47,951 nt of DNA from a virus (lineage: Duplodnaviria > Caudoviricetes): the IMG/VR virus record IMGVR_UViG_3300010362_000029, positions 1 to 47,951 of that record, one strand, 5' to 3'. The translations under genes and the position numbers were made by a program. The notes under the pieces are model-generated. The model did not search any database. It had not been told where the DNA came from and saw only the letters and a list, made by a program, of their open reading frames with translations. Positions 17,714-27,211 of this stretch are shown in pieces (position 1 is the stretch's first letter; every line of letters begins with the position of its first letter).

Positions 17714-19279
17714 GTGCACATCATGCGAAGCCCGATCGCCATATCATCGGCTCACAGCAAGTACGTCGGCGGCGCCGCTGGCGTGCTCAACGAAGTGAAG
17801 GAATCGCGGCGCGTCGTGACGCGCGTGGCCGAGCTCCTGACCGCCGCCGGCGTCTCGGTGCGGGTCTTCCACGACGACGAGAGCAAATCGCAAGGGGCGA
17901 ACCTCAACCGCATCGTCAATTGGCACAACGCGCAGCAGCGCGCACTCGACGTGTCGGTGCACTTCAACGCGTTCAAGACCACCAGCGCGCCGCGGGGCAC
18001 CGAGGTCCTGTACACGACGCAGAGCAAGCTCGCTGGCGAGGTCTCCAAGGCGATGGCCGACGCGGGCGGGCTGATCAACCGCGGCGGCAAGAAGCGCACG
18101 AACCTATCGTTCCTCAACCGCACGCGGAAGCCGTCACTCCTGCTCGAGGTGTGCTTCGTCGACAGCCGCGCCGACGCGGACGCCTATCGCAAGAATTTCG
18201 AGGCCATCTGCCGCGCTATCGCGCAGTCCACTTCGGGCGCGACGACGACGACACCGCCGGGACCGCCGCCACAGCCCGGTCAGCGGCCGACCTTGCGGAG
18301 GGGCGCGTCCGGAGCGGACGTGCGATACCTGCAGGAGCAACTCAACAGCGACTTCGGCGCCGGCCTGTCTGTCGACGGCGACTTCGGAGCGCGCACCGAG
18401 GCTGCCGTGCGCGGTTATCAGGCGAGCCGCAACCTGGGCGCCGACGGCATCGTCGGCCCGCGGACGTGGGCCGCGCTGGAGACGAACGCCCCGCCGTATG
18501 TGCCGCCGGGCCTACCGGCGCCGCTCGACGACGACGATCAGGATGCAATCATCGAGATCGCCATGAAATCCAGGATCGCCGGTTATAACTGGCCCGGCCG
18601 CGGGCGCGCACCTGCTGGCTACGTGCAGGGCTTCGCGCTGGCATTCGCCAACGTCTACCGCAAGCTCCTGGTCGTTCACGCGCCGGCCGTTGAAATGGCC
18701 AAGGCCGACACGCGCAATGTCGACGTTGACGCGCTGGCTTGGTACGCATCCGAATTCCAGCAGCTCGGCATGCGCAACAACGTCTCCGGCCCCGACACGT
18801 TGCGGCACCTGTACACGCTGATGATGGGGCTCGGCATGCGGGAGTCGAGCGGCAAGCATTGCAGCGGTCGCGACACGTCGGCCGCAAATACGACGAGCGA
18901 GACCGCCGAGGCTGGCCTGTTTCAGACGTCCTGGAACGCGCACACGTCCCACCCGACGTTCGTGCAACTGTTCAACGAGTATGCCGGCGGCGGTGCCAGC
19001 GATAACCCGCAGGGTTTTCTTGCGACGTTTCGGAACGGCGTGACGTGCCCGACGTCGTCGTGGCAAAGCCACGGCAGCGGCAACGGCCGCAAGTTTCAGG
19101 ACATGTGCAAGAACCTGCCGGCGTTTGCGATCGAGACCGCCGCGCTGGTGCTGCGCAATCGGCGCAAGCATTATGGCCCGATCAACCGGCGCGAGGCAGA
19201 GATTCGCCAGGACGCCAACGCAATGCTTGCGGACGTGCAGCGCTACATCGATGAGACAGAGCCCGGCGCTATCATCTGA
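17714..19279 (+). CDS. Endolysin: Amidase_3 + peptidoglycan-binding domain + C-terminal lysozyme-like domain
   Basis: SAH...E...SVHFNA...LLEVCFVDS; LRRGASGADVRYLQ...DGIVGPRTW; MRESSG...AGLFQTSWN. Confidence 0.88.
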   Translation: MHIMRSPIAISSAHSKYVGGAAGVLNEVKESRRVVTRVAELLTAAGVSVRVFHDDESKSQGANLNRIVNWHNAQQRALDVSVHFNAFKTTSAPRGTEVLYTTQSKLAGEVSKAMADAGGLINRGGKKRTNLSFLNRTRKPSLLLEVCFVDSRADADAYRKNFEAICRAIAQSTSGATTTTPPGPPPQPGQRPTLRRGASGADVRYLQEQLNSDFGAGLSVDGDFGARTEAAVRGYQASRNLGADGIVGPRTWAALETNAPPYVPPGLPAPLDDDDQDAIIEIAMKSRIAGYNWPGRGRAPAGYVQGFALAFANVYRKLLVVHAPAVEMAKADTRNVDVDALAWYASEFQQLGMRNNVSGPDTLRHLYTLMMGLGMRESSGKHCSGRDTSAANTTSETAEAGLFQTSWNAHTSHPTFVQLFNEYAGGGASDNPQGFLATFRNGVTCPTSSWQSHGSGNGRKFQDMCKNLPAFAIETAALVLRNRRKHYGPINRREAEIRQDANAMLADVQRYIDETEPGAII

Positions 19280-22630: not shown

Positions 22631-22667
22631 GGGGGTCGGTCTCGGACGAGATCGGCCCCCTTTTTTT
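22631..22667 (+). terminator. Intrinsic terminator between convergent operons
   Basis: GGGGGTCGGTCTC-GGAC-GAGATCGGCCCCC hairpin followed by T7. Confidence 0.85.
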
Positions 22668-22674
22668 GACGGGC

Positions 22675-22898: not shown

Positions 22899-23624
22899 CT
22901 ACGCGCGCTTGCGGATCGGCGCCGCAGCGGCGTTCTCTTGCTCCGCGCTGATCTTCACGGTGAAGCGCCCCCAACCCAGCTTGCGCGACGCGCCGACGCC
23001 GATCTCGCGGCCGGCGAACTCGATGAAGTCGGTCATCTTGCGATAGGCCACGATGTCCTCGCTGAACGCAACGTGGCCGTGGCCGACGAACGGCCCGAGA
23101 TACTGGTTGGACCGCAGCGCACGCTGGTTGCTCAGCGTCTGCCCGGTACCGCTCTTGACCTGGACGAACCGCTCCCAGGTGCCGTCAGAGCGCGTCTTGC
23201 CGGTCGAGATATTGCTGACGTGCACCACCGTTCGAATCTGTTCTTTGCGCGCGATGCGAATGGCGCTCGAGGCGAGGTCGGCGGCCTGCGCGAGGCAGCC
23301 GTACAGTTGGTGCGATGGAATCGTGATCTCGTCGGCATCGTTAGCGGCGTGACCCGCCACGCGGTGCAGCAGGTGAAAGTCGTCGGGAGCGGTGCCGTAG
23401 GTATAGAACTGCCGCTCGGCGAGCTTTTGCAGCGCTTCATAGTCCTCCATGCTCATGTCGTGCGCAGCGAGATAATCGCGCAGCGCCTTGACCCGCTTCT
23501 CCTCCGAGCGCGCGCGCCGCGTGCCGCTCTCCTTCTGCACGTTGATGAGCCGCTCGAGCTCGGGCCAGTACGGGTGCGCGATGTAGCCCTTCGTGAAGGT
23601 CAGTTCGATCGGATAGATCGTCAT
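22899..23624 (-). CDS. Solitary RAMP-superfamily (Cas7-like) protein
   Basis: IPSHQLYGCL resembles the RAMP IPGSSLKGAL motif; C-terminal G-rich loop GREIGVGASRKLGWGRFTV; N-terminal beta strand IELTF; 241 aa. Confidence 0.72.
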   Translation of the reverse strand: MTIYPIELTFTKGYIAHPYWPELERLINVQKESGTRRARSEEKRVKALRDYLAAHDMSMEDYEALQKLAERQFYTYGTAPDDFHLLHRVAGHAANDADEITIPSHQLYGCLAQAADLASSAIRIARKEQIRTVVHVSNISTGKTRSDGTWERFVQVKSGTGQTLSNQRALRSNQYLGPFVGHGHVAFSEDIVAYRKMTDFIEFAGREIGVGASRKLGWGRFTVKISAEQENAAAAPIRKRA

Positions 23625-24136
23625 GGTGATGGTCCCTTCGTTGTCGTAGGCGATTCCGTCGGCGTTGGCGTTGACGCTGGCTGCGACGGCCGGGACGTTG
23701 GCGCTGGCGAAGGCGTAGGCGATAGCGGAGGCGGGGGCGTAGGCGATGACGAAGGCACAGGCGGTGGCGGCGGCGATGGCGTCGGCGATGGCGGTGGCGA
23801 TGAAGAGGGCGTTGGCAACGACGATGACGACGGCGGTGGCGATGGCGATGGCGCAGGCGGCGGCGAAGCCGGTGGCGTCGGCGTGGGCGGTGCCGCAGGC
23901 GGAGGCGTCGGCGTTGGCGGTGGCGACGGTGACGGCGTCGGACAGGCGAACAGCGGGCCGGGCGGCTCGCGCTCGACGATGGCGCGGTAGTCGGCGGCAA
24001 TCTCCTCCATCAGCGCGATCTGCCGGCGCGCCTCGCCCTCGGTCATGGTCCCGGACGCTACGCGGCCGGGATAGACCTTAAGGCGCCAGCGAACCTCGCG
24101 CTCGGCGCAGCGGAGTTTATCGGTCGCCGAGGCCAT
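23621..24136 (-). CDS. Small phage protein (about 65-aa domain) with an array-encoded Pro-Ser/Thr tail
   Basis: KLRCAEREVRWRLKVYP...RQIALMEEIA domain followed by (P-X)n; stop overlaps the RAMP start (ATGA). Confidence 0.7.
   Translation of the reverse strand: MASATDKLRCAEREVRWRLKVYPGRVASGTMTEGEARRQIALMEEIAADYRAIVEREPPGPLFACPTPSPSPPPTPTPPPAAPPTPTPPASPPPAPSPSPPPSSSSLPTPSSSPPPSPTPSPPPPPVPSSSPTPPPPLSPTPSPAPTSRPSQPASTPTPTESPTTTKGPSP
23649..23941. repeat. Hexamer array 1, (GGCG-NN)n, about 49 units
   Basis: For example GGCG-GT GGCG-GC GGCG-AT GGCG-TC GGCG-AT; one 3-nt phase shift near 23685. Confidence 0.9.
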
Positions 24137-24139
24137 TCG

Positions 24140-25666
24140 TCAGGTCCGCGAGACCACGGTGGGAAACGTTCCGGGCTCGACCCGCCAGCCCGCGGCGCGC
24201 CGGATTTCTGCGAGCGTGGAGGTCGCGGTGCTCAGGCGGTTTTCCATTGCCTCGACGTCGGCCGCCAACCGCTCGTTGCGCTCCTCCAAGGTCTTGATCT
24301 GGGCGAGCAGCTCGGCGTTCTCCGTGTTCAGCCGGTCGATGACGGCCTCGCGTTCTTCGGCCTCGCGCATCAACCGCGCGCGATCGTTCACAGTGTCCTC
24401 GACGTCTGCGATGACGACGCCGGCTTGCTGGACGAGCTTGTCGATGTTGGCCTTCACAAAGGCGAAGGTGTCGGTGGTGATCGTGGTCATGGGTGGCTGC
24501 TCCGGCTCGCTGATCCAAGACGCGCCGGCCGCGCGAGCCACGGCGGCGGGCGGAGAGTTGAGCGCGCGGTGCGCCGCCAGGGCGACCAGGAGTGCTAGCG
24601 CCATGCTCAACAGCATGCGCGGCGCGGGTCGGCGCGGGAGCGGCAGCTCGACCGGCGTCGCCACGAACGCGTCGGTGAACGCGACGGCGACGCGGTGCGA
24701 GGGCGTTGGCGATGGCGCAGGCGAAGGCGATGACGTCGGCGTCGGCGCTGGCCGAGGCGGTGGCGAAGGCGCGGGCGATGGCGTTGGCGAAGGCGACGGC
24801 ATGAGCGTTGGCGATGGCGGTGGCGGAGACGAGAGCTTTGGCGCGGGCGAAGGCGGTGGCGAGGCCGCAACCGAGGGCGATGGCGATGGCGACGGCGAAG
24901 GCGCAAGCTTTGGCGCGGGCGTCGGCGTTGACGCGGGCGATGGCGGAGGCATTGCCGTCGGCGAAGACGCTGGCGAAGGCGTTGGCTGTGTCGTTGGCGT
25001 CGGCGGTGGCGATGCCGCAGGCGATGGCGAAAGCGAAGCCGATGGCGGCGGCGCGGGCGAGGACGAAGCCGCAGACGCTGGCGATGGTGACGGCGTGGCC
25101 GCAGGCTTAGGCATTGGCGAGGGCGAAGGCGAAGCCGTTGGCGCAGGCGCTGGCGATGGCGCGGGCGGTGGCGTTGGCGTCGGCATTGTCGTTGTCGCTG
25201 GCGTTGGCGTCGGCGGCGGCGAAGTCGTCAGCGACGGCGAAGGCGTTGGCGTCGGCGCGGAACGGGACAGGATCGCGGCGCGGCGCGGCGCCCGGCGGGC
25301 GTGCAGATTTGCATTGGCCTTGAGCGGACCGGACCAGCACTTGCGACCGCGGACGAGGCGGTAGGACCAGTAGCCGGCGCGGGCCGACGCCGGTGGCAGG
25401 GTCGAGCGACACCCCGCCGAGCGGCGCGCGCTTGAGACGTCCGACAGACCGCTGGCGGCGGAATGTGGGTCGGAGGTCCGCGCGGCCGCCGGCGAGGCGA
25501 CCATCACCGTGAGCGCGGCGATGATGGCAGTGAAGGTGGGGCCGTGCCTACCGCGCGCATCACGGTCGCTGGCCGTGCCCCTTCGCGGCATCTGAGCGCT
25601 CCCGCTATCGCCGCGCCGAAGCACGTGGTGGGCAGCGCCGCGAAACTCAACCCATGCGGAGATCAT
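24140..25666 (-). CDS. Long ORF: signal/TM segment, C..YWSYRLVRGRKCW domain, array-encoded (P-X)n, TM, coiled coil; the coiled coil may be a separate gene at 24140-24490
   Basis: Open frame co-oriented with the operon; true start and possible internal start MTTITTDT are uncertain. Confidence 0.55.
   Translation of the reverse strand: MISAWVEFRGAAHHVLRRGDSGSAQMPRRGTASDRDARGRHGPTFTAIIAALTVMVASPAAARTSDPHSAASGLSDVSSARRSAGCRSTLPPASARAGYWSYRLVRGRKCWSGPLKANANLHARRAPRRAAILSRSAPTPTPSPSLTTSPPPTPTPATTTMPTPTPPPAPSPAPAPTASPSPSPMPKPAATPSPSPASAASSSPAPPPSASLSPSPAASPPPTPTTQPTPSPASSPTAMPPPSPASTPTPAPKLAPSPSPSPSPSVAASPPPSPAPKLSSPPPPSPTLMPSPSPTPSPAPSPPPRPAPTPTSSPSPAPSPTPSHRVAVAFTDAFVATPVELPLPRRPAPRMLLSMALALLVALAAHRALNSPPAAVARAAGASWISEPEQPPMTTITTDTFAFVKANIDKLVQQAGVVIADVEDTVNDRARLMREAEEREAVIDRLNTENAELLAQIKTLEERNERLAADVEAMENRLSTATSTLAEIRRAAGWRVEPGTFPTVVSRT
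24702..25259. repeat. Hexamer array 2, (GGCG-NN)n, 93 units in unbroken phase
   Basis: Parsed by hand: position 3 is C in 92 of 93 units, while NN is highly variable. Confidence 0.92.
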
Positions 25667-26079
25667 TTACGCCGCTCCTCGATCATGGCGCGGACCTCGG
25701 CGGCGGCCACCTGGTCGAGCAGCATGGGGAGCACCTGCGCCAGGATCACTTCGCGCGCGTCCTCCCAATAGGCTTCGAATTCGACGGCTGACATTGCCGA
25801 CAGGGAATGCGGGACCGGCAGCGTCGAGCGGCTGCCGTCGGGCTGCGGCACTAGGTCGAAGCGCCCGGTCGCGATAGCGAGCCAGCCGCCGGGGTTCTGA
25901 ATGCCGCGCGCGCGGCCGATCCGGGCCAGAACCATATGGACGAAGTCTCTGAACGCCGGCGCCTGCTGGATGCGCACGCGCACCTTCTCGCCGACCGAGA
26001 GCTCGGCCATTTTGACTCGGGCCGAGTCGTCGAGCGGGATGAGTCCGTTCTTCACAACACCGAAGTCCATTTCATCCAC
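25663..26079 (-). CDS. Hypothetical protein (NinB/DUF1367-like position and ending)
   Basis: VPHSLSAMSAVEFEAYW, directly downstream of the recombinase. Confidence 0.5.
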   Translation of the reverse strand: MDEMDFGVVKNGLIPLDDSARVKMAELSVGEKVRVRIQQAPAFRDFVHMVLARIGRARGIQNPGGWLAIATGRFDLVPQPDGSRSTLPVPHSLSAMSAVEFEAYWEDAREVILAQVLPMLLDQVAAAEVRAMIEERRK

Positions 26080-27211
26080 CAGCCAGCGGGTTCACCGGCG
26101 TGACGTCCAGCTTTCGCTTGTTGACCGCGGCGACCAGCCGGACGTGAATTTTCGGCGCGTGCGCCTCCATCTGCGTGAAGATGTGGGCGTTGGCCTTCTG
26201 CCACGCATCGATGCTGGCGACCGTTTGCAGCGGCTGTATCGCCGCCAGGAAGCGGGCGCCCCACGAGCGCCACTCCTCCTGATCGCCCAGTACGAGCTCT
26301 TGCGGCGCGACCTCGCCGGTTTCGGGATCGACGTCCAGCCCGTCGGGATCTGCGGGTGGCGGGTCGGGACCATAGTCGGACGTTGGCGTAGGCGCGGGCG
26401 TCGGCGAGGACGTCGGCGTTGGCGAGGGCGACGGCGAAGGCGCAGACGTTGGCGCTGGCGCTGGCATGGGCGAGGGCGGAGGCGTTGACGGCGGCTTGGG
26501 CGATGGCGTAGGCGAAGGCGGCGGTGACCAGTTGTCGGCGGGCTGCGGCGCGGCTTCGGGCGCGCCGATTATGCCGCCGGCCATTTCTTCGTCCGAATAG
26601 TCGGCCTCCTCAGGAAATGCGGCGCGAAGCGACATCGCCTTGGCGACCTTGAGCAGCTGGCCGCGCGGTCGGCGCGCCCACATGTCGTTGGGCAATTCTC
26701 CGCCGCCGACGCGACCGTAAGTCTCAAGCCAATAGACGGGCTCGACGAAGGAGACGCGCTGATTGTCGACCAACCGATAGACGACGACTGAGCACCATTC
26801 AGGGTATTTTAGCGTGACTTCGGCGTCGACCCACTGGCCGCGCACGCGCTTGCGGCCGCTGAAAGTCTGCGTCGTGTCCGGCCCCCACTGCGGCGGGTCC
26901 ATGCCGGCCCACGCGCCGGTGCGCGCCGCCGTCACCTGCACCTCGTTGATTGACGGCCAAACAGTCTCGATTTCTTTGCCGAGCGTGCTGTTCCACATGC
27001 TTACGATGTTGACGGCGTGCTTCATCGGATCGAGGCCGCGCTTCTTGCAGTACGCGAGCGCGAGCAAGATCGCCTCGGGCGTTTTCGCCGTCGGGAAGAT
27101 CGCCTCGACGTAGACGCGCCAGTCGACAGGGTCGCAGTCGGCATAGGTCGGCATCGGCAGGCGCGGCTGTGGGCGCACGGCCGGTAGATTGCGGGGCGGT
27201 TGCTCGTTCAT
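26072..27211 (-). CDS. bet: Bet/RecT-family single-strand annealing recombinase with array-encoded Pro-rich linker
   Basis: YCKKRGLDPMKH...AARTG...PEWC...MWARRPRGQLLKVAKAMSLRAAFP. Confidence 0.88.
   Translation of the reverse strand: MNEQPPRNLPAVRPQPRLPMPTYADCDPVDWRVYVEAIFPTAKTPEAILLALAYCKKRGLDPMKHAVNIVSMWNSTLGKEIETVWPSINEVQVTAARTGAWAGMDPPQWGPDTTQTFSGRKRVRGQWVDAEVTLKYPEWCSVVVYRLVDNQRVSFVEPVYWLETYGRVGGGELPNDMWARRPRGQLLKVAKAMSLRAAFPEEADYSDEEMAGGIIGAPEAAPQPADNWSPPPSPTPSPKPPSTPPPSPMPAPAPTSAPSPSPSPTPTSSPTPAPTPTSDYGPDPPPADPDGLDVDPETGEVAPQELVLGDQEEWRSWGARFLAAIQPLQTVASIDAWQKANAHIFTQMEAHAPKIHVRLVAAVNKRKLDVTPVNPLAGG
26379..26528. repeat. Hexamer array 3, (GGCG-NN)n, 25 units inside bet
   Basis: GACG-TT GGCG-TA GGCG-CG GGCG-TC GGCG-AG ... 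in unbroken phase. Confidence 0.88.

Follow-up and report, generated by a model that had tools for sequence, protein, structure and literature searches.

Six-base arrays linked to a RAMP gene in a temperate phage: a probable VIPR-like guide RNA that also codes for protein

Introduction

The DNA analysed here (the window) is the entire 47,951-base virus record of a temperate tailed phage. One of its genes contains a proline-rich stalk built from two-codon units that read CCN-NCG, and an earlier note on this DNA had claimed that this run, array 2, is constrained at the nucleotide level and not just as a Pro-rich linker. What would hold a synonymous site fixed through such a linker? One answer is suggested by VIPR, which combines a protein (Vipr) with a guide RNA (vrRNA) and has been divided into types I-VII (10.64898/2026.04.26.720920, 10.64898/2026.04.26.720927, 10.64898/2026.10.15.759431). 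In the main description of VIPR the repeat units are pentanucleotides only (10.64898/2026.04.26.720920). We argue that array 2 probably supplies guide RNA to a VIPR variant with six-base units and encodes a Pro-rich linker at the same time. The sequences establish the unit, phase and strand of the repeat, its linkage to a family of RAMP genes and its in-frame insertion into real genes; the guide function is proposed by analogy.

Unit, phase and codon pattern of array 2

In the CCN-NCG phase, array 2 occupies positions 24698-25255 on the minus strand and has exactly 93 units, the number previously counted by hand. The wobble base of the second codon is G in 92/93, again as counted, and that of the first is A in 39, T in 25, G in 15 and C in 14, which turns an estimate of about 64 A/T into an exact 64/93. 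There is indeed no phase break. Codon usage in 21 further window genes (9,633 codons; GC3 0.78; Pro A/T wobble 0.22; NCG share 0.54) served as reference: over 92 counted units, the Pro codons of slot 1 end in A or T in 47/69 cases (p 2.5e-16), the NCN codons of slot 2 end in G in 82/83 (p 5.6e-21), and the Pro codon itself switches with the slot, CCG accounting for 9/9 in slot 2 and 14/69 in slot 1.

Information content per position, computed on the plus strand (GGCG-NN), is 1.65, 0.99, 1.91, 1.41, 0.12 and 0.13 bits. One synonymous site is frozen, as had been claimed, but variability is not confined to the first wobble: both NN bases are free, one a wobble base and the other the first base of a codon. 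On the gene strand, CGCC-NN (24698..25257) is a better reading of the unit, with scaffold position 3 semi-variable. A guide on the opposite strand (GGCG-NN) was rejected, since the repeats of relatives take the form TGGC-NN when the gene strand is read, and the operon has that orientation as well. The order of NN is non-repetitive, as the earlier note had suspected: entropy over the whole array is 3.49 bits (2.47 bits over the first 15 units), and no 5-unit word recurs among the three arrays of the window. Judged by eye, the Pro-rich part of the gene at 282-2864 (tape measure 1 of the earlier note) has no long phase. Contigs of three runs (X1, X2 and X3, of which X1 may be the source sample) match array 2 whole or in large parts with 0 differences, so the array is no assembly artefact.

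Two units of array 2 have the scaffold AGCT; they lie 12 units apart at 24832..24909 (minus strand), and an identical pair of units precedes each. In distant relatives the modules of the arrays end with AGCT, and these units could possibly be a guide boundary.

The locus

The three arrays sit on the minus strand in the leftward early region, which runs from the RecT gene (array 3) through a NinB-like gene, the array-2 gene and a small gene (array 1) to the RAMP gene at 22899-23624. Array 3 (24 units, 26377..26520) is an in-frame insert in the linker of the RecT-family annealing protein (26072..27211). The ORF hosting array 2 (24140..25666) encodes a predicted signal peptide, a Cys/Trp domain, the array stalk, a predicted membrane helix and an in-frame coiled-coil tail. 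Array 1 (41 units, 23692..23937) is in frame in the small gene immediately upstream of the RAMP gene (23621..24136), which has a weak PHROG 19667 match at its N-terminus and overlaps the RAMP start. Neighbours of the RAMP gene include RecT, the NinB-like gene, YqaJ and an integrase, the last with matches at only about 25%. Pfam scans of 28 window ORFs found no Cas families, no CRISPR-like repeat was found in the window, and the three arrays are not followed by a common 3′ tail. Between positions 19000 and 31000 an Rfam scan returned 0 matches, and a promoter scan stayed at chance level. A strong terminator-like hairpin with a T run lies on the plus strand at 22631-22670, between the integrase side and the RAMP gene.

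A distant homologue of Vipr

The RAMP gene (22899..23624, minus strand) encodes 241 aa with no Pfam match and no match among annotated phages. Its structure model has a pLDDT of 93, and the top PDB matches of that model are Cas7/Csm3-type subunits (E 3e-6, TM 0.4-0.5). A profile of 50 relatives and SUSP1 Vipr align over 137 columns at 16% identity, with 92% probability and E 6e-7; the only PHROG match of the family profile is phrog_4652 (E 6e-4), the family that SUSP1 Vipr itself matches at 1e-96. Two features picked out the SUSP1 Vipr ORF: GGY-NN runs on its flanks, and residue numbering in agreement with the structure paper. By these profile comparisons the window gene is a distant homologue of SUSP1 Vipr, and its product is likewise a small stand-alone RAMP with RRM, thumb and G-loop. 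The G-loop, near residues 205-221, reads GxGASRKxGWGR, as opposed to GVGDWRPRFGR in VIPR.

Of the scaffold-reading residues of SUSP1 Vipr, the alignment, at 16% identity, places R138 and R179 opposite window R168 and R214, and D177 and W178 opposite A212 and S213; the change at the latter two counts against the VIPR-like reading. The alignment suggests that the retained thumb Arg would read the invariant scaffold G and the retained G-loop Arg the final pyrimidine, and that loss of Asp177 may have relaxed the first scaffold base. Across the family, G-loop residue 218 is W only where scaffold position 3 is a pyrimidine (50/50); where that position is a purine, the residue is Y, F or C (15/15), and six pyrimidine cases have other residues. 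The tally covers 71 of 75 rows (four did not parse), and because the quick tree contains few independent changes it gives only a hint that the protein may read the scaffold.

Arrays beside RAMP genes in relatives

Homologues of the RAMP protein numbered 169 in one search and 210 by profile. DNA context was available for 94 distinct RAMP genes. In 81 of them the gene strand carries an array no more than 400 nt away, the median distance being 27 nt. The remaining 13 comprise two with an array further off, six with an incomplete flank and five without an array by the strict caller. A looser caller found arrays beside four of these five; the fifth, L090, is the only RAMP gene with an internal stop, and its array is merely degenerate (at L090:8789-9900 an internal TAA in the RAMP gene is followed by a decayed array). 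The pooled scaffold of the family is C/T (97%), G (98%), a variable position and C (94%), and scaffold types cluster on a quick tree of the RAMP family. Clades with TGGC-NN and CGGC-NN have the GGY-NN of VIPR plus one base. The family survey found no 5-nt array adjoining any RAMP gene: the period is six.

Several relatives' arrays cannot be coding. That of L108 contains 26/3/8 stops in the three frames and a tgacTT-agct separator that recurs, that of L118 shifts phase by +1 every 5-13 units, and those of L082 and L047 have repeated separators. These arrays bear on the plainest explanation of array 2, that it is an ordinary Pro-rich linker or a coding microsatellite with a codon-pair bias. Its host gene is real and in frame in four phages, as such a linker requires, but the same six-base unit also occurs beside RAMP genes in non-coding, frame-shifting form, and intergenic arrays of this kind largely refute the idea.

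Some features of these loci were recorded in passing. In L118 (9690-11300) it is a seven-base unit that divides the array into its modules, and a few units have three free bases. A hairpin in the L082 separator was proposed and not supported. At L120:8854-11983, from a Planctomycete bin, the RAMP gene is split in two about 1.7 kb apart with TGGC/TGAC arrays behind it; at L292:12301-12451 (reverse-strand numbering) a CGTC-NN run is opposite in strand to the RAMP gene of G013; and at L048:100-300, upstream of a RAMP gene by about 2 kb, there is a separate palindromic, low-complexity repeat of alternating GC and AT.

Similar repeats without a RAMP gene

Does the same codon pattern occur in PT/PS linkers of phages that lack a RAMP gene, which by the earlier note's own account would tell against its claim? 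It does in part. A scan for ten CGCC-NN units gave at least 121 viral loci (about 670 estimated), 80 of them with flanks, and a RAMP gene lies near only two, both on one contig; a check of 40 whole records with such repeats, run with no positive control, found a RAMP gene in none (0/40). The PT/PA/AY repeats of RAMP-less phages, a set picked for its scaffold, have the same frozen G, and their Pro wobble base is often A or T, in line with an ordinary linker. They do not share the diversity of NN. Over 15 units NN entropy has a median of 1.29 bits and a maximum of 2.39 in RAMP-less repeats (n=95), compared with a median of 3.0 in RAMP-linked arrays (n=124), and 2.5 bits is reached by 0/95 of the former and 114/124 of the latter, a threshold that the first 15 units of array 2 just miss. 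With the diversity filter applied, RAMP-bearing records yielded 33 high-diversity arrays over 903 kb, and 856 kb of phage DNA lacking RAMP yielded 0, the control set being less GC-rich (57 vs 64%). The codon asymmetry alone is not diagnostic, because RAMP-less low-complexity repeats share it; NN diversity together with RAMP linkage is diagnostic. On this evidence a mere linker or microsatellite is a highly improbable account of array 2.

Array 2 is real, non-random and RAMP-linked. The constraint asserted for it at the nucleotide level is borne out and is bound up with the RAMP gene.

Many RAMP-less phages (L126-L246) have low-diversity coding repeats of the Ala-Tyr-Ala-Asp type on the same CGCC scaffold; as speculation, these could be a source of the arrays or a decoy for them. 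Phage PT/PS linkers and AYAA-type coding repeats resemble the window arrays in the look of the peptide and sometimes in the CGCC scaffold, and differ from them in low NN diversity and the lack of a RAMP gene.

Arrays inside genes

The scaffold is nearly stop-free by itself, so stop-free frames were rejected as proof of coding, and the coding status of an array rests on conserved flanking domains. In the window and in L009, L013 and L015, array 2 is in frame, with the conserved Cys/Trp domain, which follows a predicted signal peptide, on one side and the predicted membrane helix on the other; the frame is kept despite differing unit numbers. One homologue of the Cys/Trp domain has no Pro stalk. 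RecT relatives at ~50% identity in G001-G003 lack both the RAMP gene and the insert. Other RAMP-bearing phages have arrays in the same frame within unrelated genes: L262:9785-10202 (G004), L293:18232-18466 and 19123-19219 (G013) and L270:2805-2979 (G023), two of these three records having arrays 14-26 kb from the RAMP gene.

Alignment with related phages, proposed in the earlier note as a way of seeing whether only NN varies, gave a divided answer. Between the window and L009 or L013, 20-60 units could be aligned (alignments that may not be orthologous), and 0-2 of them differ at the synonymous scaffold G; third positions in RecT and RAMP differ by 25-41%. NN changes fast, as expected, but unit number does too: phages with almost identical RAMP proteins have 70 vs 67, 31 vs 20 and 50 vs 42 units. 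Blocks of 5 units are common to different arrays within some genomes (13 in G015, 7 in L036, 3 in L042 and 3 in L017, where nulls gave at most 0.23), and a 12-unit block is placed differently in array 2 of the window and array 2 of L009.

Such movement would also be expected if six-base guides are real and only the gene-flanking arrays work, in-gene copies like array 2 being by-products of recombination that are tolerated because they never break the frame. The in-gene arrays have no clear separators or tails, which fits. Against it, the scaffold G of array 2 is frozen while neighbouring wobble sites diverge, so that G is still under selection, and all three arrays of the window are within genes. 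We regard inert copies as an improbable explanation.

Target searches

If NN guides pairing, targets might be found. The units of 190 arrays (4,721) were searched against 2.9 Mb with skips of 0-3 bases, and matches scoring 8 or more numbered 7/5/4/0 against nulls of 4.3/6.7/2.0/4.7; an earlier gapped search (skips 0-4, 1.0 Mb) was also at null level. Both results hold after removal of one mis-phased low-complexity L036 array and, in the 2.9-Mb search, of the L048 arrays as well. Two skip-1 patterns from array 2 met 0 and 5 contigs of the viral collection, the five being two unrelated chance events with no extension. In no register did the order of NN carry a signal resembling that of codons (|z| never exceeded 2.4, and no positive z was above 1.0); NN is AT-rich and avoids GG and CC, unlike codon positions 1-2 of GC-rich genes.

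One match is a lead, though not a significant one. The first 8 units of the L064/L099 array (9 with the two bases before it) match the antisense of a conserved motif in DndB-family genes with a skip of 1 that falls on the wobble; L064:1058-1105 pairs with L123:2368-2391 and L262:14187-14210, in two related temperate phages that are its only two matches in the viral collection. Shuffles put p at ~0.03-0.15: a score-8 window matching two different sequences arose in 0/30, and in 131/867 under a looser rule. Other arrays of G013 do not converge on G001 or G004, with which G013 has only the RAMP gene in common.

The null searches accord with a further possibility, that the arrays are landing strips for the RAMP protein on the phage's own mRNAs, controlling translation or stability or titrating the protein, with NN near-neutral and no target. 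Many unrelated genes, some as far as 26 kb from the RAMP gene, do contain arrays on their sense strand, and the AT-rich NN make the RNA less structured: a 72-nt stretch has -15.8 kcal/mol, against -21.5 +/- 1.9 kcal/mol when NN is uniform. Intergenic arrays that abut the RAMP gene are nonetheless divided into modules of 5-13 units, as guide arrays are, and the protein is a Vipr homologue whose known relatives target via NN, according to the main VIPR report (10.64898/2026.04.26.720920). Landing strips seem to us unlikely.

Discussion

The system of the window most likely works like VIPR, even though its units are not of five bases and its arrays are not intergenic vrRNAs. The likenesses are a phage-encoded, stand-alone RAMP homologous to SUSP1 Vipr, at a locus where neither cas genes nor a CRISPR array was found, and adjacent same-strand repeats in which a fixed scaffold alternates with variable NN, modular in relatives. 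The unit differs: 6 nt (YGNC-NN) in the window family, 5 nt (GGY-NN; YNNGG or a related 5-mer) in VIPR. So do the arrays, which reach 93 units or more in the family, often in frame in protein-coding genes, and for which no common 3′ tail was found. A VIPR vrRNA is intergenic, with 9-16 units and a conserved 3′ tail, and the 24-93 units of the window's in-gene arrays count against reading them as six-base guides.

A survey of non-canonical 5-mer VIPR, as far as its main account goes, likewise finds a Vipr-like fold next to arrays whose fixed motif is a different one (GAC/NN, CAC/NN), and differs in that all those arrays are 5-nt and intergenic (10.64898/2026.10.21.760802). Its screen used intergenic sequence, so in-gene arrays would likely be missed. 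No six-base unit was found in the main texts of the VIPR literature (10.64898/2026.04.26.720920, 10.64898/2026.10.15.759431, 10.64898/2026.10.21.760802), whose supplements may list clade members. In Class 1 CRISPR, as summarised in the first of these, Cas7/Csm3 takes up six guide nucleotides per subunit and leaves every sixth position unpaired (10.64898/2026.04.26.720920). The window system shares the RAMP fold of these backbones and would share their six-nucleotide step; it differs in having four of the six bases fixed and in that no cas operon or CRISPR array was found.

By analogy with VIPR, the arrays would be carried on the early-operon RNA. One RAMP subunit would bind each six-base unit, hiding the four fixed bases and presenting NN to DNA, and runs of about 8-12 units would pair with, and silence, the DNA of a competing phage, the most likely arrangement being a skip of one base per unit. 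Since a six-base unit equals two codons and neither CCN nor NCG can be a stop codon, guide units could be gained, lost or changed without frameshift, and guides could thus be stored inside genes. A wider reading would make this an RNA-guided system in which each guide unit spans exactly two codons, with targeting memory inside protein-coding genes genome-wide, mRNAs that double as guide arrays, and a six-base step per RAMP subunit that matches Class 1 CRISPR and bridges VIPR and Cas7; we offer it tentatively, as a possibility we are somewhat inclined to doubt.

The locus offers a small, testable system: one protein of 241 aa, one repeat and one predicted specificity residue (218). If the guide interpretation of array 2 is right, genes would hold guide RNAs in frame, out of sight of intergenic screens, and some “Pro-rich linkers” would be dual-coded. 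The VIPR code would widen from five to six bases per subunit, the step of the Cas7 filament, which would bear on the origin of the CRISPR backbone.
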